From NCBI GenBank assembly GCA_963828735.1, contig CAWHFW010000005.1, forward strand, positions 2,176,001 to 2,240,000: DNA of 64,000 nt, written 5' to 3'. Source of the stretch: an uncultured Gemmatimonadales bacterium. GTDB lineage: Bacteria > Gemmatimonadota > Gemmatimonadetes > Gemmatimonadales > GWC2-71-9. Positions 11,968-28,039 of the stretch are shown here, in pieces. Position 1 is the stretch's first letter, and every line of letters starts with the position of its first letter. Under the pieces are notes generated by a model. It saw nothing but the letters and a program-made list of their open reading frames with translations, was not told where the DNA came from and did not search any database. The translations under genes were made by a program, and so were the position numbers.

Positions 11968-14900
11968 TCACGAGGCCGCGCTTTCGCGCGAGTGCATGGC
12001 GAGGCCCCGACGGTGGACCGGCTCCCCGAAGATCTCGAGGAACACGGGCACGATCAGCAGCGTGACGAGCGTCGAGACCACGAGGCCGCCCACCACGGCG
12101 AGCGCGAGCGGCCGCTGCAGCTCCGCCCCGGCGCCGAGGCCGAGTGACAGCGGCACGAGGCCGGCCAGCGTGCATACGGTGGTCATGAGGATCGGCCGCA
12201 GCCGGACCCTGCCGGCGTGGGCCAGCGCTGCCGCCGGCTCCTCTCCCGCGTCGGACGCGTGGCGGGCGGCGTCGAGCAGCAGGATGCCGTTCTTCACGAT
12301 CAGCCCCACCAGCAGGATCAGTCCCATGAAGCTCGAGACGTTGAACGGAACCCCCGTCACGCCGAGCATCGTCAGCGCGCCGGTCACGCCGAGCGGCACG
12401 GCGAGGACGATGGCGAGCGGGCCGCGGAAGCTCTCGAACTGCGCCACCAGCAGCAGCAGCACCGCGCCGAGCGCGAGGGCCAGCACGCCGAGCAGCTCGC
12501 GGAACGCGGCCTGCTGGCTGGCGTACTGCCCGCCGACCTGCAGCGTCACGCCCGCCGGCAGCGCCACCCGACCCAGCGCCCGCCGCACGTCGCCCATTAC
12601 GCCGCCGAGACTGCGGCCGCTGGTCCGCCCGGTCACCGCGACGTATGGCCGGAGATTCTCGCGCAGGAGCTCGCTCGCCCCGCCGGTGTCGCGCACTTCG
12701 CCGAGCTGAGCCAGCGGAAGCCAGCCGCCGGGCCCGATGATCGGCACCCGCGCGATGGCGTCGCCCTGGGCGCGCACGCTGTCGGCCAGTCGCACGCGGA
12801 TCGGCACCAGCCGGTCCGGCTCCCGCGCGGTGCCGGCGTCCGCGCCGAAGAGGGCCGCCCGCGCCTGGGCCTCGACCTCCCCGGCCGTGAGCCCCAGCCG
12901 CGCGACGCGCGCCGGGTCGAGCTCGACCCGGCGCTCGGGGTTGGGGCCCTGCACGCCGTCGAACAGGTCCACCAGGCCGGGCGTCGGCTCGATCGCCGCC
13001 GCCACCGCCCGGGCCGCGCGTTCGGCGGCGGCCTGGTCCCGGCTGAACAGCTTGAGCTCGACCGGCTCCGGCGCGCCGGCCAGGTCGCCGATCACGTCCT
13101 GCATGAGCTGCACGAACTCCACTCGCACGGCTGGCGCCCTCTCCTCCGCCGCCGCGCGCACCCGATCCATGACCTTGTAAACCGACGGCCGGGCACCGCG
13201 CGCCTTGAGCAGCACCGTGAAGTCGCCGCGATTGGGCGACGTGGCTGCGAAGCCGAGCTCGCTGCCGGTCCGGCGGGTGAACGCCTGCACCGCGGGGTCG
13301 GCCAGCAGAATGCCCTCGAGCACGCGCACCTGGCGGTCGGTCTCGGAGAGGGCGGCGCCGGTCGGCGCCCAGTAGTCGAGGATGAAGCCGCCCTCGTCCA
13401 TCTCGGGGAGGAAGCCGGTCCCGATCACGCGAGAGAGGCCCAGACCGAGCGCCAGCAGCGCGACGCATGCGCCGACGGCCGCTGCGCGGTGCGCGAGCAT
13501 CCAGCCGATGGCCCGGGCGTAGCGCTCCTCCAGCGCACGGAGCGAGAGTCGCGGGGCCCGCCGCCCCCGCGCCTCGCGGGCGGCCCACTGCGCGACCACC
13601 GCCGGAATCACCGTCATCGCGAGTGCGAGCGAGATGAGCACGGCCACCGCGAGCGCGATGGCGAACGACCGGAAGAACTCGCCCACCACGCCGGTGAGGA
13701 GCCCGAGCGGCGCGAAGACGACGACCGTGGTGAGGGTCGAGCCGGCCACCGGCCCGAGGATCTCGTCGGTGCCCGTCCGCACCACCTCCGCCGGCGGCTC
13801 GTCCGGGTGCAGCGCGAGCCGGCGCTCGATGTTCTCCACCACGACGACCGCGTCGTCGATGATGATGCCGATCGCCACCGCCAGGCCGCCCAGGCTCATC
13901 AGGTTGAGCGAATCGCCCGCCAGCGCCAGGCCGAGAAGCGTGATGGCGACGGTGAGCGGCAGGCTGAGCGCGGCGGCCGCCGTCGTCCGCCATTCGCCGA
14001 GGAAGAGGAGCAGCACGAGCACCGCGAGGGCGCCCCCGAGCAGCATCGCGTCGCGGACGCTCCGCATGGAGTCGCGCACGAGCGCGGCCTGGTCGTACAC
14101 CGACTCGAGGCGCACGCCGGCCGGCAGCAGGGGGCGGAGCGAGTCCAGCGCCGCCCGCACCGCGGCCTGCAGGCGCAGCGTGTTGCCGTTCGGCTGGCGG
14201 GACACGTTGACCAGCGCGGCGGGCCGGCCGTTGCCGGCCACGATCTGGAAGAGGTCCTGGGCGCCGTAGCTCACGGTGCCCAGGTCGGCCACGCGCACCG
14301 GCCGCGGCCCGCTCTCGCGGACGACGACCCGTCCCACCGCCTCCGGCGTGTTGGTGAGCCCCGAGACGACGACGGCGTACTGCCGGTAGTCGCGGTCGGT
14401 GCGGCCCGCCGCCGCTTCCACGTCCGTGCCGCCGATCGCCTGGGCGACCTGGTCCACGCTCACGCTGTTCGCCGCGAGGCGGGCCGGGTCGAGCTCCACC
14501 GCGATCTCGCGGACGCGCCCGCCTTCGACCGCGACCTCGCCCACGTCCGGCAGCCCGGCCAGCCGCGGCCGCACGGTGCGCTCGGCGAGGTCCCGGAGGA
14601 CGAGCGGGTCGGCCCCCGTGAGCTCGTACTGCAGCATCGGAAACACTGACGGCGTGAGCCGCTCGGCGCTGAGGTCGAGCCCGTCGGGCAACGTGCCCCG
14701 CGCCGCGGCCAGCCGGCCCTGCACCTGGCTCAGCGCGAACTGCATGTCGGCGTTGGGACGGAAGTCGAGGCTCAGCTCCGCCGAGCCGCGGACGGTGAGC
14801 GTGCGGACGCGCCGGAGGCCGAGGATGCCGCTCAGCGCCTCCTCGAGCGGTCGGGTGACCGCGACCGTCATCTGCTCCGCCTCGAACGTGCCGCCCCGCG

Positions 14901-15045
14901 CGAGCACGACGATGCGTGGGTACGTCACCTCCGGATAGATCCCCGCGGGCAGCGTGAGCAGCGCCCATACGCCGCCCAGCGCGAGCAGCGCGACGGTGAG
15001 ATAGACGGCCGCCCGGTGCCTGAGGAAGAGACCGGTGAGCCTCAC
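11968..15045 (-). CDS. RND efflux permease (AcrB/CusA superfamily)
   Basis: GIIIDDAVVVVENI, FLPEMDEG, KNGILLLD and RLRPILMTT; the GTG start overlaps the adaptor stop (the 1566-aa ORF is over-extended). Confidence 0.95.
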   Translation of the reverse strand: MRLTGLFLRHRAAVYLTVALLALGGVWALLTLPAGIYPEVTYPRIVVLARGGTFEAEQMTVAVTRPLEEALSGILGLRRVRTLTVRGSAELSLDFRPNADMQFALSQVQGRLAAARGTLPDGLDLSAERLTPSVFPMLQYELTGADPLVLRDLAERTVRPRLAGLPDVGEVAVEGGRVREIAVELDPARLAANSVSVDQVAQAIGGTDVEAAAGRTDRDYRQYAVVVSGLTNTPEAVGRVVVRESGPRPVRVADLGTVSYGAQDLFQIVAGNGRPAALVNVSRQPNGNTLRLQAAVRAALDSLRPLLPAGVRLESVYDQAALVRDSMRSVRDAMLLGGALAVLVLLLFLGEWRTTAAAALSLPLTVAITLLGLALAGDSLNLMSLGGLAVAIGIIIDDAVVVVENIERRLALHPDEPPAEVVRTGTDEILGPVAGSTLTTVVVFAPLGLLTGVVGEFFRSFAIALAVAVLISLALAMTVIPAVVAQWAAREARGRRAPRLSLRALEERYARAIGWMLAHRAAAVGACVALLALGLGLSRVIGTGFLPEMDEGGFILDYWAPTGAALSETDRQVRVLEGILLADPAVQAFTRRTGSELGFAATSPNRGDFTVLLKARGARPSVYKVMDRVRAAAEERAPAVRVEFVQLMQDVIGDLAGAPEPVELKLFSRDQAAAERAARAVAAAIEPTPGLVDLFDGVQGPNPERRVELDPARVARLGLTAGEVEAQARAALFGADAGTAREPDRLVPIRVRLADSVRAQGDAIARVPIIGPGGWLPLAQLGEVRDTGGASELLRENLRPYVAVTGRTSGRSLGGVMGDVRRALGRVALPAGVTLQVGGQYASQQAAFRELLGVLALALGAVLLLLVAQFESFRGPLAIVLAVPLGVTGALTMLGVTGVPFNVSSFMGLILLVGLIVKNGILLLDAARHASDAGEEPAAALAHAGRVRLRPILMTTVCTLAGLVPLSLGLGAGAELQRPLALAVVGGLVVSTLVTLLIVPVFLEIFGEPVHRRGLAMHSRESAAS

Positions 15046-16097
15046 CGCGCGGATCCGGCGGCCGCGGCCGTCGGCACGACGTGCATCCCATCCTCCAGGC
15101 CGAAGGCGCCGGTGGTCACGACACGCTCGCCCTCGCGCACGTCGCCCCGGATCTCGGTCCGGCCGCCGGCGCGAAGCCCGCGTGTCACGGTGCGCGCGTG
15201 CGCCACCGAGTCCGGCCCTACGACGAACACCACCGTGCTGTCGCCGGCGAGCACCACCGCCGAATCGGGAGCGACCAGCACGTCGCGCCGGACGCCCAGG
15301 CGGATCCGCGCCGTGGCCGCCGCGCCCGAATGCAGCCGGCCGGCGCCGTTCGGCACGCGGATCACGGCCTCCCCGGCGTTGGTGAGGGTGTCGACGCCCG
15401 GGGCGAGCGCGGCGAGCCAGCCGTGGGCGACCGCGGTGTCGCCGTCTTGCACGACATCCACCGCCAGCCCGGTGCGGAGGCGCCCGAGCTCGGGCGCGGG
15501 CACCGGTGCGGCCAGGTCGAGGGTATCGGCCGCGACCACTTGCGCCAGTGCATTGCCGGCGTCCACCCGCTCGCCTGGCTGGACCATCACCTCCTGAACC
15601 CGGCCCGCGACCGGGCTCGCGACCCGCGTGCGGGCCAGGAGGTCGTGCGCGGCGGCGGCGGCGGCGGCCGTCTGCCCGGCATTCGCGGCCGCCTCCTCGG
15701 CCTGGCGCGCCGACGTAATCCCGTCGGCCAGCAGTTGCTGCTGCCGCGCCGCCTCGCGCTCGGCCTGCGACGCTACGGCGGCCTTCTGCGCGGCGTCGGC
15801 CGCGAGCTCGGGCACCTCCAGCTCGACCACGACCGCACCCCGGGCGACGCGGTCGCCGACCTGCGCGCGCACCGCCCGCACTACGCCGGCCGCGGGCGCC
15901 GCGAGGAGCGCGCCGCCGCCGGGCCGCGGCTCCAGGCGGCCGGTCAGCGCCAGCGTTTCGGCGAGGGAGTCGCGCGCGATCATGCCCAGCGCGACCGGGA
16001 CCCGCGCTGGCGCGGCGCGCTCTTCGGCGCCGCTGTCGCCGCCCGAGCCGCAGGCGGCGAGCAGGACGAGCCCGGCCGACAGGAGGCCCCGGGTCAC
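15042..16097 (-). CDS. RND efflux periplasmic adaptor (membrane fusion lipoprotein)
   Basis: Lipobox LAAC; biotinyl-lipoyl-like halves (GDRVARG; SPVAGRV...PGERVDAG); GTGA overlap with the TolC stop. Confidence 0.93.
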   Translation of the reverse strand: MTRGLLSAGLVLLAACGSGGDSGAEERAAPARVPVALGMIARDSLAETLALTGRLEPRPGGGALLAAPAAGVVRAVRAQVGDRVARGAVVVELEVPELAADAAQKAAVASQAEREAARQQQLLADGITSARQAEEAAANAGQTAAAAAAAHDLLARTRVASPVAGRVQEVMVQPGERVDAGNALAQVVAADTLDLAAPVPAPELGRLRTGLAVDVVQDGDTAVAHGWLAALAPGVDTLTNAGEAVIRVPNGAGRLHSGAAATARIRLGVRRDVLVAPDSAVVLAGDSTVVFVVGPDSVAHARTVTRGLRAGGRTEIRGDVREGERVVTTGAFGLEDGMHVVPTAAAAGSAR

Positions 16098-17266
16098 TCG
16101 GCGTATCCGGCGAGGGCGTGCCAGTCGGCGAGCGCCTCCTGGAAGGCGAGCTCGTCCTGTATGGCGGCGAGCGACGCGTCGCGCTCGCCACGGAGCGCGT
16201 CCAGCACCGGGAAGATTCCGGTCTCGCCGGCCTGGTACGCCCGTAGCGCCCTCCCGCGCAGCACGGCGGCGCCCGGGACGATCGAGTCGCGGTCGAACCG
16301 CGCGCGGGCCGCGGTCTCCTCGAGATGGATGCGGGCCAGCCGCAGCTGCCGCACGACGTCGAGCCGGGCCTCGCGCGCCAGCGCCGACGCCCGGTCCGCG
16401 CGGGCCGTCGCTTCGGCCGCGGTGCCCCCGCCGATGTTCCACAGCGGGAACGGCACCGCGATGCCGATGACGCCCAGCGTGCCCGGCTGCGACTCGTCGC
16501 CCCACTCCGCGCCCGCCTGGACCGTCGGCATGGGGATGCGCGCCCGGTCGGCGCTTCGCGCCTGGGCGGCGGCCGCAGCCGAGTCCGCCGTTGCGGTGCG
16601 CACTGCCGGCAGGGTGGCGAGGTCGATCGCGGTGTCGGGAAGCTGGTCCACGTCCGCGTCGAGGGCACCCATCGGGATCGGCGGCGCGCCCTCCCAGGCG
16701 ATCGCTCGCGCCAGCTCCGCTTCGCCCACGCGCGCGACCTCGCGCGCGGTCGCGGCGGTCTGCCGGGCGCGCGCCGCCTCCTGGGCCGCCTGCTCCTGCT
16801 CCAGCAGCGAAATGTCGCCGGCGCGGAGCCGTGCGGCCGCGAGCCGGGCCACCGAGTCGGCCAGAGACGCCTGCGCGCTCACCAGCGACTCCGCCACGCG
16901 CGAGGCGCGTGCACGGTAGAACGCGCTCCGCACGTCGCGCAGCAGCCCGGCCAGGGCGAGCGACGAGTCGGCCAGCGCGCGCTCGACGCCGGCCTCCCCG
17001 GCCGAGCGGTTGCTGCCGCGTCGGAGCAGCCAGTCAAGCGGCTGGTCCACCAGCAGGTGGTTGCGAGGGGTGGATTCGCTGTGGCTGTACGACACGGTGG
17101 GATTCGAGATGGTGCCCGCCACGCGGAGAGCCCCGCGCGCCTCGGCCACGCCCGCCGCCGCCGCGGCGACGACGCCACGCGCGTGCCGCGCGTGGTCGAG
17201 CGCCTGCGCCAGGGAGATCGAGTCGGCCGGCGATTGGATCAGGAGAGCGATAGTCAGCAGAATCAT
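16094..17266 (-). CDS. TolC family outer-membrane efflux protein
   Basis: Signal peptide; VPFPLWN and AYQAGETGIFPVLDA repeats; operon position. Confidence 0.92.
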   Translation of the reverse strand: MILLTIALLIQSPADSISLAQALDHARHARGVVAAAAAGVAEARGALRVAGTISNPTVSYSHSESTPRNHLLVDQPLDWLLRRGSNRSAGEAGVERALADSSLALAGLLRDVRSAFYRARASRVAESLVSAQASLADSVARLAAARLRAGDISLLEQEQAAQEAARARQTAATAREVARVGEAELARAIAWEGAPPIPMGALDADVDQLPDTAIDLATLPAVRTATADSAAAAAQARSADRARIPMPTVQAGAEWGDESQPGTLGVIGIAVPFPLWNIGGGTAAEATARADRASALAREARLDVVRQLRLARIHLEETAARARFDRDSIVPGAAVLRGRALRAYQAGETGIFPVLDALRGERDASLAAIQDELAFQEALADWHALAGYAE

Positions 17267-17443
17267 CGGCGTGCCGCCTTCGCACTCACGCGCCGAGAGC
17301 CGGGACGGGCAGGGAGGTGGAGGGACACGGCTGGAACCTGCACTGCCGGAGTCAGGCGCGCAAAGGCGGGCGAAGGGCATCACGGACCTGGGGCGTGTGG
17401 CATCCCCGAGGACCATGATCCGGGTGGTCTGAGGATCGGATTC

Positions 17444-24968: not shown

Positions 24969-25056
24969 GCGGCACATGACGATGAGCTCGATGCTCAGTG
25001 AGCCGGAGTCGTTCCGGTCAACGAGCACGCGCGGGGTTCGTCAGGTTGGAGAGAGC

Positions 25057-25242
25057 ATGCAGCGGCGCATCGTGGGCTTCCATCAGGATCAGGAGGGCGC
25101 GTGGGTGGCCGACCTCGAGTGCGGCCACGCCCGACACATGCGCCACGAGCCCCCATGGCAGGTCCGGCCATGGGTCACGACGCCCGAGGGTCGGTCCACC
25201 ATGATCGGGACTACGCTGGAGTGCGTCCACTGTGGGGAATGA
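25057..25242 (+). CDS. DUF3565 family small Cys/His protein
   Basis: IVGFHQD..WVADLECGHARHMRHEPPW..RPW..ECVHC; GGAGAG RBS. Confidence 0.85.
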   Translation: MQRRIVGFHQDQEGAWVADLECGHARHMRHEPPWQVRPWVTTPEGRSTMIGTTLECVHCGE

Positions 25243-25301: not shown

Positions 25302-26515
25302 ATGCTAACCGCCGCTACCAAATCGCCACCACCAGCCGTCACGCCGTCCCAGGCCATCGCCGCGCAGGCCTCGTCAGCCGTCACCTGGCCGCTCACGGCA
25401 GTGCTGCTCTCCTCCGCCGCCATCGTCGTGGGCATTCTCTGGGACATCTCCTGGCACAAGACCGTCGGCCGGGACACGTTCTGGACCCTCCCGCACCTCG
25501 TGGAACAGTTCGGCGCCATCGTCGCGGGTGTGAGCTGCGGCTGGCTGGTGCTGCGCACCACCTTCGCCGGCTCCGATCCGCCAGCGCGCCGAGTCGGTGC
25601 GCTTCTGGGGTTTCCTCGGGCCGCTGGGCGCCTGGGTCACCATCTGGGGCACCTTCGTGATGATCACTTCCGCCCCGTTCGACAACTGGTGGCACGACGC
25701 CTATGGGCTCGACGTGAAGATCATGAGCCCCCCGCACATGGTCCTCGCCCTCGGGATGATCTCCGTGGTTCTCGGCGGCATGCTCATGGTGCTCGCGGCG
25801 CAGAACCGGGCCACGGACGCCGGAGAGGTACGGAAGCTCGCCTACGCGTTCGCCTTCGCCGGCGGACTGCTCGTGGTCATGGTGGCGACGATGATCTCGG
25901 AGTACGCCAGCCGGCCGAACAATATGCACCAGCCGCTCTTCTACCAGGTGGCGGCCGGGGCCTTTCCCGTCCTGCTTGTCGCCCTGGGCCGCTCGGGTAG
26001 GCTCCGGTTCCCGGCCACGGCGAGCGCCGCGGTGTACATGGGCATCATCCTGGCGACGATGTGGATCCTCCAGCTCTTTCCCGCCGAGGCCAGGCTGGCG
26101 CCGATCTACACCCGCGTCACGCACATGGTGCCGCCGGAATTTCCGCTCTTGCTCGTCGTGCCAGCGCTCGCGATCGACCTGCTGCTCCTACGCGGGCGGC
26201 CGCGGGCACGATTGGCTGCTGACCGTCGGCCTTGGACTCGCGTTCGTCTCCCTGTTGCTCGCCGTGCAGTGGTACTTCGGGGAGTTCCTGCTCTCGCCCG
26301 CCGCGCGGAATTTCTTCTTCGCGGCGGACCAGTGGCCGTACATGGTCCGGCCGGGGCCGTGGCAGCACCGCTTCTGGAGTGTCCCGGTGGATGCCGCGGG
26401 CAATCTCGACGGTGCGGCGCTGGCCCGCGGCCTGGGCTTCGCCGTGCTCATCGCGATGGGCTCCGCACGGATCGGGCTCTGGTGGGGCAACGGGATGTCG
26501 CGGGTGCTGCGATGA
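25302..26515 (+). CDS. Polytopic membrane protein with two PmoC/AmoC-like metal motifs; interrupted by two frameshifts (~25575-25590 and ~26185)
   Basis: Stitched from ORFs 25101, 25597 and 25976: [39 protein letters not shown] and many TM helices; about 405 aa if repaired. Confidence 0.8.
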
Positions 26516-28039
26516 GACCAGCGGCCGCTCGGCCCTGGGTCTCGTGGGACTCGTGGCACTGTGCTCGGCTCACGTAGGCAGCCCGGACGTCTGGTACGAG
26601 GGAGCTGCGGGACCCTACCACGTCGTGGTGTACGTGCGCCTCCCGGGCGTGGTCCCCGGGATCGCGGACATCAACGTGCAGGTGGTGGACGCGACGCCCG
26701 AGCAAGTCACGGCGCTGGTCAACCTGTACGATGCCAACGCAGGCACTCCGCCGGCGGATGTGGCCCGGCCGGTCGGCGGTGGCTGGTATGCGACCCGCCT
26801 CTGGATCATGGCGCCGGGCTCGAACAGCGTCACCATCAGCGTCAAGGGAGCAAAGGGCACCGGGACGACCATCGTACCCGTGGCGGCCGTGCCCAACCGG
26901 CGGCTCCCGCTCCAGCGCTCGCTCGGCATCATCCTCGGCGCGCTCGGCCTGTTCCTCTTCGCCGGCATCGTGACCATCATCGGGGCCGCCGTGCGCGAGG
27001 GCGTGCTGCCGCCCGGCGAGACTCCCCAGTCGCCGGCGGGTCCTGGGCGCGCGAGGCGCCATGGTGGCGAGCGGCCTGATCGTCGGGCTCGTGCTTCTGG
27101 GCGGATGGACGTGGTGGGACGGCGAGGACCGCGGCTTCGTCGAGCGGATGTATCGACCGTTCCCCACGGAGGCCGGGGTCGTGGGGCCGGGTCGCATCGG
27201 TCACTCCGGCTCGAGATCATGGACTCCGGGTGGATCATGCGGCGCGACTCGGTCTGGCTCAAGCAGCATGGCCAGCGTGCCTGGCCGCCGCTTGTGACCG
27301 ACCACGGCAAGCTGATGCACCTATTCCTGGTCCGGCAGTCGGACATGGACGCCTTCGCCCATGTTCATCCGACGACGGTGGACTCTGTGCGTTTCGATGT
27401 GCCCCTTCCCGCGCTGCCGGCGGGACGGTACCGAGTCTTCGCCGACCTCGTGCACGAGAGCGGGTTCGCGAAGACGCTGGTGACCAGTGTGGATCTTCCG
27501 GCCCCGACGCCCCGGCTCCAGCAGACACGGCCGGTGACGACGGCCTCTATCTGGGCTCCTCTGCGGCCGGAGATAAGGCGACCCTGGCGGATGGCGCCAC
27601 GGTGACCTGGGATCGCGGGAGCGCTCCGCTGGTCGCGGGCGCGCCGGCTGCGCTGAGCTTCACCGTGCAGGAGCCGACCGGGCAACCGGCGTCGCTCGAG
27701 CCCTATCTCGGAATGCCGGGACACGCGGTCGTGGTCCGGGACGACGGGGCCGTCTTCATTCATCTGCATCCGATGGGGACCGTGTCGCCCGCGGCGCAGG
27801 AGACCTTCACCCTGCGCCAGCAGGGCGACACCGTCGCCGGTGCCATCGGCTCACGGATCGCGTCCCAGGACTCGGCGATGGCCGTGGGCATGACGCACGC
27901 GTTTCCCGGCGGCCGGATCTCGTTCCCATATGCCTTCCCCCAGCCTGGCCGATACCGGATCTGGGTCCAGGTGAAGCGGGGCGGGCGGGTGGAGACGGCC
28001 GCGTTCGATGCCCAGGTGCGGACCGCGCTGCCTCGCTGA
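26512..28039 (+). CDS. Secreted, 2-TM-anchored His-rich putative copper-binding protein; interrupted by about 5 single-base frameshifts
   Basis: Stitched from ORFs 26232, 27061 and 27230; ATGA overlap with the upstream gene; [22 protein letters not shown] and YLGMPGH..IHLHP; about 510 aa if repaired. Confidence 0.78.

Follow-up and report, generated by a model that had tools for sequence, protein, structure and literature searches.

Passages in PMC13058606 describe copper membrane monooxygenases (CuMMOs) as enzymes that resist recombinant expression and, for the particulate methane (pMMO) and ammonia (AMO) monooxygenases, as having an active site (CuB, CuC, CuD, or CuC plus CuD) that has long been disputed. 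The same source gives CuC and CuD as two histidines plus Asp or Asn each, and the layout of PmoB as a signal peptide, a His, a beta domain, two membrane helices and a beta domain. Known CuMMOs are encoded by three genes that match family models; their protomers form trimers, and they hydroxylate ammonia, methane or short hydrocarbons with the help of copper and O2. In a 64,000-nucleotide stretch (the window) of contig CAWHFW010000005.1 from an uncultured Gemmatimonadales bacterium, we analyzed a two-gene counterpart with sub-threshold model hits, consisting of an upstream gene and an overlapping partner gene at 26512..28039. Judged by its sequences, this pair looks like a distant branch of the CuMMO family, so far without a name. 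The upstream protein is a PmoC-PmoA fusion in one chain, and the partner, a His-rich protein of the periplasm with a membrane anchor, most likely serves as second subunit in a membrane complex that binds copper; that this complex is CuMMO derived, with the partner as its copper-binding subunit, we consider probable. No published description of the pair family was found in the full-text literature, which was searched by titles and abstract starts and with most subscription journals outside the search.

The features of the pair are as follows (positions in the window).

25302..26515, + strand: upstream gene, about 403 residues, joining a PmoC-like core and a PmoA-like half in one chain, with assembly indels at two points (near 25575 and near 26195)
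25443..25737, + strand: CuC-like Asp48-x3-His52-x12-His65 and CuD-like Asp127-x3-His131-x13-His145 (Asp for Asn); invariant and in register with XmoC
25813..26512, + strand: PmoA/AmoA-like half, residues 171-403 (structure and profile matches)
26512..28039, + strand: partner gene (509 residues when intact), broken at four points (near 26531, 27021, 27182 and 27509) by single-base assembly indels
26512..26515, + strand: ATGA overlap, the partner start lying inside the stop of the upstream gene (sequence; in-frame NTGA junction in 57/75 assessable loci)
26512..26570, + strand: signal-peptide-like leader, 20 residues, ending C-S-A (sequence pattern and conservation)
26571..26573, + strand: His21, predicted mature residue 1 (conservation)
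26571..26900, + strand: N-terminal immunoglobulin (Ig)-like beta sandwich, CrdA/YtkA-like, with conserved Trp98 and Met100 (model, structure and sequence matches)
26808-26810, + strand: Met100 codon (conservation)
26916..27147, + strand: two membrane helices, residues 136-163 and 174-212 (sequence and model)
27166..27500, + strand: second beta domain with His265, His270, His284 and His286 (model and conservation)
27542..28021, + strand: third beta domain, repeating the second; has Met402, His405, His418 and His420, and an insert that varies and contains His/Met (model, conservation and profile)

The upstream protein is a PmoC-PmoA fusion

The upstream protein combines features of PmoC/AmoC (PF04896) and PmoA/AmoA, with the CuC/CuD ligands in register and the PmoA fold over about 208 residues. 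It differs from these subunits in being one chain, in a PmoC part that is alignable from about residue 120, and in having Asp at both metal sites, including CuD, where Asn is usual. Its N-half (residues 17-177) matched an XmoC profile, built from four plasmid operons plus metagenome loci, with a probability of 65.7% and E 6e-5; the six CuC/CuD ligand positions were in register and are invariant in 76/76 rows of the upstream alignment. It is this motif alignment on which the putative PmoC link of the N-half rests. The C-half matched the XmoA profile at E 0.003 over 171 collinear columns, compared with E 0.067 or worse for cross and reversed profile controls. In a structure search based on the upstream model (pLDDT, the predicted local distance difference test, 93.5), twelve pMMO/AMO chains matching residues 171-403 occupied ranks 1-12 (Z 11.7-12.9; next 9.4), and superpositions on PmoA/AmoA chains covered 184-217 residues with a root mean square deviation (rmsd) of 3.3-4.7.

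PF04896 found nothing in the bacterium's own genome at E 1, no Pfam or NCBIfam model matched the upstream protein above cut-off (sub-threshold hits occurred in 3-4/76 members), and sequence searches of solved structures with the upstream alignments, the alignment of an actinobacterial fusion described below and the partner's first domain alone returned nothing. Searches of the ESM Atlas gave clusters without names as sole matches, one of which (372 residues, 497 members, most frequent in Chloroflexota) is similar to the upstream protein, with a score of 0.93. The two metal motifs form a clear internal repeat (E 1e-4 in the upstream protein; 7e-12 in the actinobacterial form), with no such repeat detectable between the XmoC halves (E 0.16), a hint that CuC and CuD may stem from duplication of one helical hairpin.

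The partner gene is broken by assembly errors

The ATGA overlap with the PmoC-like gene, reported in an earlier reading of the sequence alone, is present. The membrane segments and His motifs quoted there are likewise all in the sequence; the partner's features occupy three reading frames of the window because of four single-base indels. Short-read contigs of 3/3 DNA runs, from three separate studies, are indel free at three of the partner sites, and at site 27182 the indel is absent from the short-read contigs of 2/2 covering DNA runs. The two indels of the upstream gene are also missing from short-read contigs wherever these cover them. The indels in both genes are therefore assembly errors, and the partner gene is real. 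A pseudogene or programmed frameshift was considered and rejected on the basis of the short-read contigs. Contigs from one metatranscriptome cover both genes in part, with 90-99% identity; this is no proof of transcription, and a sigma-70-like promoter was looked for and not found. An intact relative, P0002 (509 residues, 98% identical over the partner's first segment), stood in for the partner protein in modelling. The nearest relatives that have a name belong to Gemmatimonadales, as does the host bacterium.

The partner is predicted to expose a conserved histidine and carries two His-rich domains

A leader ending L-C-S-A and followed by a His had been recognized in the sequence-only reading, and its pattern is well kept among relatives. 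Alignment A1, which keeps 141 of 247 full-length hits after removal of near-duplicates and N-terminal fragments, has Ala, Gly or Ser at position -1 in 136/137 rows that include a leader; a hydrophobic core is present in 135/137 and a basic N-region in 137/137. By this pattern test, which is not SignalP, the leader fits signal peptidase cleavage directly before His21. The Cys before the His lies outside any lipobox and is unconserved, and a lipoprotein was rejected on those grounds. His21 itself is present in 137/141 rows of A1 and in 122/130 cluster representatives (440-580 residues); of the other eight, four are without an N-terminus, three have Asp and one has Tyr.

An AlphaFold2 model of P0002 (pLDDT 94.9; predicted template modelling score, pTM, 0.91; 141-row alignment) agrees with the previously proposed order of leader, beta domain, two helices and further beta domains, placing a leader helix ahead of beta domain 27-126, helices 136-163 and 174-212, and beta domains 219-329 and 345-504. 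Besides His21, the conserved candidate ligands of the first domain are Met100 (97%) and an acid at position 83; going by strand order alone, His21 and Met100 would lie at the same, membrane-near end of the domain. The second and third domains, also Ig-like, are repeats of each other (profile comparison, probability 93.5%), and their His and Met residues (His265, His270, His284 and His286; Met402, His405, His418 and His420) are each 98-100% conserved. The His of the 'MTH' motif quoted in the earlier reading is poorly kept, at 55% of the 247 full-length relatives.

The partner occupies the place of PmoB

Because the upstream gene is a C-A fusion, the partner sits in PmoB's place in a C-A-B order. 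It resembles PmoB/AmoB (PF04744) as the last gene of that order and in its signal peptide, N-terminal His, beta domain, two membrane helices and further beta domain; it differs in having three beta domains and conserved His clusters in the C-terminal domains, with no H-x-H in the first domain, as the sequence-only reading had itself cautioned. One explanation of these likenesses is true, though deeply diverged, orthology of the partner to PmoB, with the operon descending vertically from xmoCAB and bearing an extra C-terminal domain. The shared gene order, topology and His1 speak for such descent, as do two weak XmoB profile matches in corresponding halves, one of partner residues 66-136 to XmoB 89-174 (E 0.012) and one of a 29-column patch of the second domain to the XmoB C-terminal domain (E 6e-4), with reversed controls at E 0.15-0.29. 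However, the probabilities of these matches are 4% and 29%, the N-terminal domain-to-domain comparison gave E 0.2, and the C-terminal tandem is clearly of other origin. In the match to residues 66-136, the XmoB strand with the H-x-H lies opposite a partner strand that holds no His. The XmoB profile is shallow (73 sequences, mostly of one clade) and limits the test in both directions.

PF04744 and the NCBIfam B-subunit models were without a hit for the window pieces, the intact relatives and the family members (0/95), and all other Pfam and NCBIfam models were without a partner match above cut-off. As to the fold of the soluble domains, which is cupredoxin-like in PmoB, the top whole-model structure matches of the partner were of Ig/fibronectin type III type (listings down to Z 8.0), and PmoB was absent among the 50 matches listed in each of three structure searches with the partner model, which does not amount to exclusion of PmoB. 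A search for XmoB in the 301 genomes around genome G001 and three other records, meant to supply reference sequences, found nothing. Descent from PmoB is not supported by sequence comparison, the profile matches being weak, and we regard orthology as rather unlikely.

The earlier reading brought in N-terminal His braces, which bind copper in PmoB, CopC and lytic polysaccharide monooxygenases (LPMOs). The CuB site combines the N-terminal His and an H-x-H in one domain, and the partner is without the second and third CuB histidines; in two-His brace proteins such as LPMO and CopC, the second His ligand lies in the His-initiated domain, and the partner is without one. There is no second conserved His in its first domain (residues 22-130; best column 21/141 in A1), and a two-His brace is therefore not supported. 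Verrucomicrobial PmoB is also described as lacking the CuB histidines, and hydrocarbon monooxygenase (HMO) activity as surviving CuB mutation, in passages of PMC13058606; the missing brace thus lowers the case that the partner is a PmoB more than the case that it works like one. In archaeal AMO, according to a part of 10.1101/2022.04.06.487334, missing parts are replaced by other subunits.

The two genes are almost always adjacent

Linkage was followed in a GTDB locus set made up of the best 80 of at least 594 confirmed matches. Within this set the upstream gene immediately precedes the partner in 77/77 loci having upstream DNA, and the loci come from Gemmatimonadota, Acidobacteriota, Verrucomicrobiota, Bacteroidota, Eisenbacteria and others; no third gene recurs near the pair beyond generic signalling proteins and local synteny. 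In the bacterium's own phylum, Gemmatimonadota, 301 genomes contained the partner in 71 cases, the upstream gene in 72 and both in 69, and in 69/69 the coordinates place the two genes as an adjacent pair (one of these genomes, G481, is unpublished). Homologs without the upstream gene, whose frequency the earlier reading had proposed to check, are thus almost unknown: of the two partner-only genomes, one is explained by a contig end and one by a stand-alone C-terminal tandem. The three copies of the upstream gene that occur alone are short of one, six and six of its six ligands. These degenerate copies (L179:3355-4497, L180:3002-4144 and L181:4347-5834) share a gene neighborhood, which by eye holds acyl carrier, short-chain dehydrogenase, acyl-CoA ligase, sulfotransferase and glycosyltransferase look-alikes, and given this common neighborhood they may reflect a single event.

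Alternatively, the genes may be co-expressed and the proteins work apart, the partner being an anchored periplasmic metal sponge. The existence of the C-terminal tandem as a stand-alone protein would be in line with this, as would a second copy in one genome, where about 4.7 kb of other genes separate the pair (L178:3130-7840; by eye, a GMC-oxidoreductase-like gene plus another two or three). However, strict adjacency across several phyla, the stop-start overlap, the joint loss of the partner and the upstream ligands, and the actinobacterial fusion with its comparable His module leave separate function only a slight chance.

Further observations concern the surroundings of the pair. DsbD/CcdA-like and peroxiredoxin-like genes recur upstream in 4-6 Gemmatimonadaceae loci (L003, L006, L014, L017, L024 and L047), as judged by eye, and may represent synteny. 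At L004:1300-1340 both genes lie in one frame, with most of the junction gone and just 8 codons left between the upstream match and the His; this single case was not counted as a fusion and is likely a deletion or assembly fault. Chondrinema litorale, a cultured species of Bacteroidota, has an intact pair in a plasmid record (NZ_CP111053; L170:5007-7832), convergent with a resistance-nodulation-division (RND) efflux operon. In the window, a small DUF3565 gene at 24976-25242 lies on the same strand just before the upstream gene and is not a conserved neighbor, and an RND efflux cluster (AcrB-family permease, adaptor and outer-membrane factor; 11968-17416, - strand) lies about 8 kb upstream of the pair, its apparent open reading frame fusions probably being due to more assembly indels.

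Actinobacteria encode a single-chain form

Streptomyces and Mycolicibacterium plasmids encode proteins of about 480 residues in which a PmoC-like part is followed by a PmoA-like part that is shortened; next come a signal-like stretch with A-x-A at its end, then the His, one beta domain and, finally, a membrane helix. A search with the C-terminal 161 residues of the Streptomyces protein gave 366 proteins, and 98 of the 120 listed were kept (440-540 residues; 11 near-identical sequences removed). The upstream-protein profile, which covers a region outside the query, matched 98/98 of these relatives, and a His follows Ala in 98/98, a count partly set by the query. The single-chain form matched the upstream alignment with a probability of 99.9%. 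Its His domain moderately matched the partner's first domain and first helix, at 43% and E 2e-4 (reversed control 0.023), and at 6% and E 0.006 in a whole-alignment comparison. A second lineage thus has an upstream-type protein and a His-initiated exported domain in one chain, which is no proof that this is the same domain as the partner's.

The single-chain family (L171:5902-7371, L173:5944-7371 and L174:5959-7404; P0391-P0510) has an invariant His-Asp-Pro-Gly start after A-x-A, and one copy shares its plasmid with the hydrocarbon monooxygenase operon of M. chubuense NBB4. Genes for multicopper oxidases, cupredoxins, cytochrome c biogenesis or BlaI/CopY-family proteins lie near the single-chain form in 3/4 records examined.

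Possible copper-protein relatives of the partner's domains

The first domain of the partner matched Helicobacter pylori CrdA in structure (Z 10.8, rmsd 2.5, 100 residues) and sequence (E 0.006), and the YtkA model PF13115 matched 9/95 members below cut-off (best E 5e-4). CrdA, for which a passage in PMC9182242 reports periplasmic copper binding, and YtkA-like domains are putative relatives of the first domain, by fold and a weak sequence match; in contrast to the partner, CrdA is without the His and has a Met-rich loop, where the partner has a Pro-rich stretch, with His21 and Met100 as conserved candidates. A further likeness is to the copper acquisition pair YcnI (DUF1775) and YcnJ of Bacillus subtilis, a system that, in passages of PMC12362106, has a YtkA domain and, next to a membrane protein, an anchored one with a single His site at its N-terminus; the partner's membrane neighbor differs in its PmoC/PmoA architecture, and neither protein of the pair has a DUF1775, CopC or CopD match above cut-off. 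The C-terminal tandem is homologous (profile probability 99.9%) to stand-alone 'heavy metal-binding domain' proteins of 290-330 residues, from Nostoc, Hymenobacter and Tsukamurella plasmids. Matches of this type occurred in 26 plasmid records. They align with the two C-terminal domains and share the His motifs of these, and are without the His1 domain, the membrane pair and the upstream gene; they are themselves uncharacterized. In 3/3 records examined a heavy-metal P-type ATPase gene adjoins or lies within three genes of the stand-alone protein, and two of these also have a cupredoxin gene.

These relatives raise the possibility that the pair is a module that takes up, stores or hands over copper without catalysis, comparable to CopC/CopD or YcnI/YcnJ, in which the periplasmic protein captures copper and passes it to the membrane protein. 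The copper ATPases beside the tandem's relatives, the copper-type genes near the actinobacterial fusions and the resemblance of the PmoA-like half to energy-coupling factor (ECF) S-components (Z up to 9.8) would all suit such a module. However, the best 80 loci show no recurrent gene for copper transport or its regulation next to the pair, plasmid records are skewed to metal-resistance islands, and retention of the whole PmoA fold and both metal sites would seem to exceed the needs of known copper importers. We consider a module of this kind a serious possibility, short of an even chance.

Proposed model and points against it

In the model that we propose, the upstream protein would unite the PmoA scaffold and the four-helix core of PmoC, with two metal sites of three ligands each, in a single chain. 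The partner would be exported, signal peptidase would expose His21 as its first residue, and its two membrane helices would dock it against the upstream protein. The amine and imidazole of His21 may bind one copper, probably with Met100 and the nearby acid, as a single-His site with no two-His brace; such a site would resemble that of YcnI as described in a passage of PMC12362106. The C-terminal domains, recruited from a copper-homeostasis protein family, may gather periplasmic copper and load the membrane sites as a built-in chaperone. This model retains the view of the sequence-only reading that the partner is linked to the upstream gene as an analogue of the B subunit or a subunit for copper delivery; a PmoB/LPMO-type His brace and PmoB descent form no part of it. 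Three of the refuting conditions named there, concerning the cleavage site, His1 conservation and homologs without the upstream gene, were checked, and none refuted this view. The case is stronger than the one made there, because the upstream protein has a PmoA-like half besides its PmoC-like half.

Beyond the missing second histidine, several results weigh against this model. PmoC chain 7yzy_C matched the upstream protein at Z 7.1 over 148 residues, and in the widest structure search the best match for the N-half was cytochrome b561 (Z 12.2), with pMMO chain B at just 8.0. CrdA was tied with a carbohydrate-binding module, CBM56 (Z 10.9-11.3), and the fold by itself is therefore no proof of copper binding. 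His21 is replaced by Asp or Tyr in 4/141 rows of A1, and at locus L080 the Asp stands next to an intact upstream protein. The His domain of the single-chain form scores nearly equally against the partner's second domain, one copy of the pair is split by the intervening genes noted above, and no conserved neighbor among the best 80 loci hints at a substrate, a reductant or a copper regulon.

Histidine-rich sites are not copper specific. The sites could hold zinc, iron or nickel, the complex then being a hydrolase or a redox protein chemically unrelated to CuMMOs; Asp/His/His at both membrane sites suits harder divalent ions, and the cytochrome b561 match of the N-half fold fits as well. However, every named relative points to copper (PmoC, PmoA, CrdA, YtkA and the heavy-metal ATPase neighbors with cupredoxins), and we hold another metal to be improbable.

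As to what the probably CuMMO-derived complex does, we narrowly favor a copper-dependent membrane oxidative enzyme, with confidence approaching an even chance, because the PmoA scaffold and both sites are retained; pure copper handling, the less favored reading, draws on the domain relatives and the neighbors of the actinobacterial form. What weight remains falls to another metal or to independent proteins. A bolder proposal, which we put forward as tentative and on balance unlikely, is that the pair is an active two-subunit copper oxygenase and a fourth CuMMO branch in heterotrophic soil and sediment bacteria of several phyla, whose fused C-A subunit keeps an ancestral CuC/CuD duplication in two symmetric Asp/His/His sites and whose B subunit was rebuilt from copper-chaperone domains and is self-loading.

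Significance

The pair keeps both C-subunit sites without the CuB histidine set, in two genes or in one, and thereby offers a tractable test of a two-site center by itself and of copper delivery. The family is found in the cultured Chondrinema litorale, and its single-chain form in Streptomyces and mycobacteria. If the oxygenase proposal is true, the actinobacterial single chain would be the smallest known CuMMO-type catalyst. If the complex handles copper alone, it would point to copper trafficking as the origin of the methane and ammonia monooxygenases. Should the complex instead be an enzyme, 69/301 sampled genomes, about a quarter, of an abundant soil phylum would hold an unrecognized oxidative activity.

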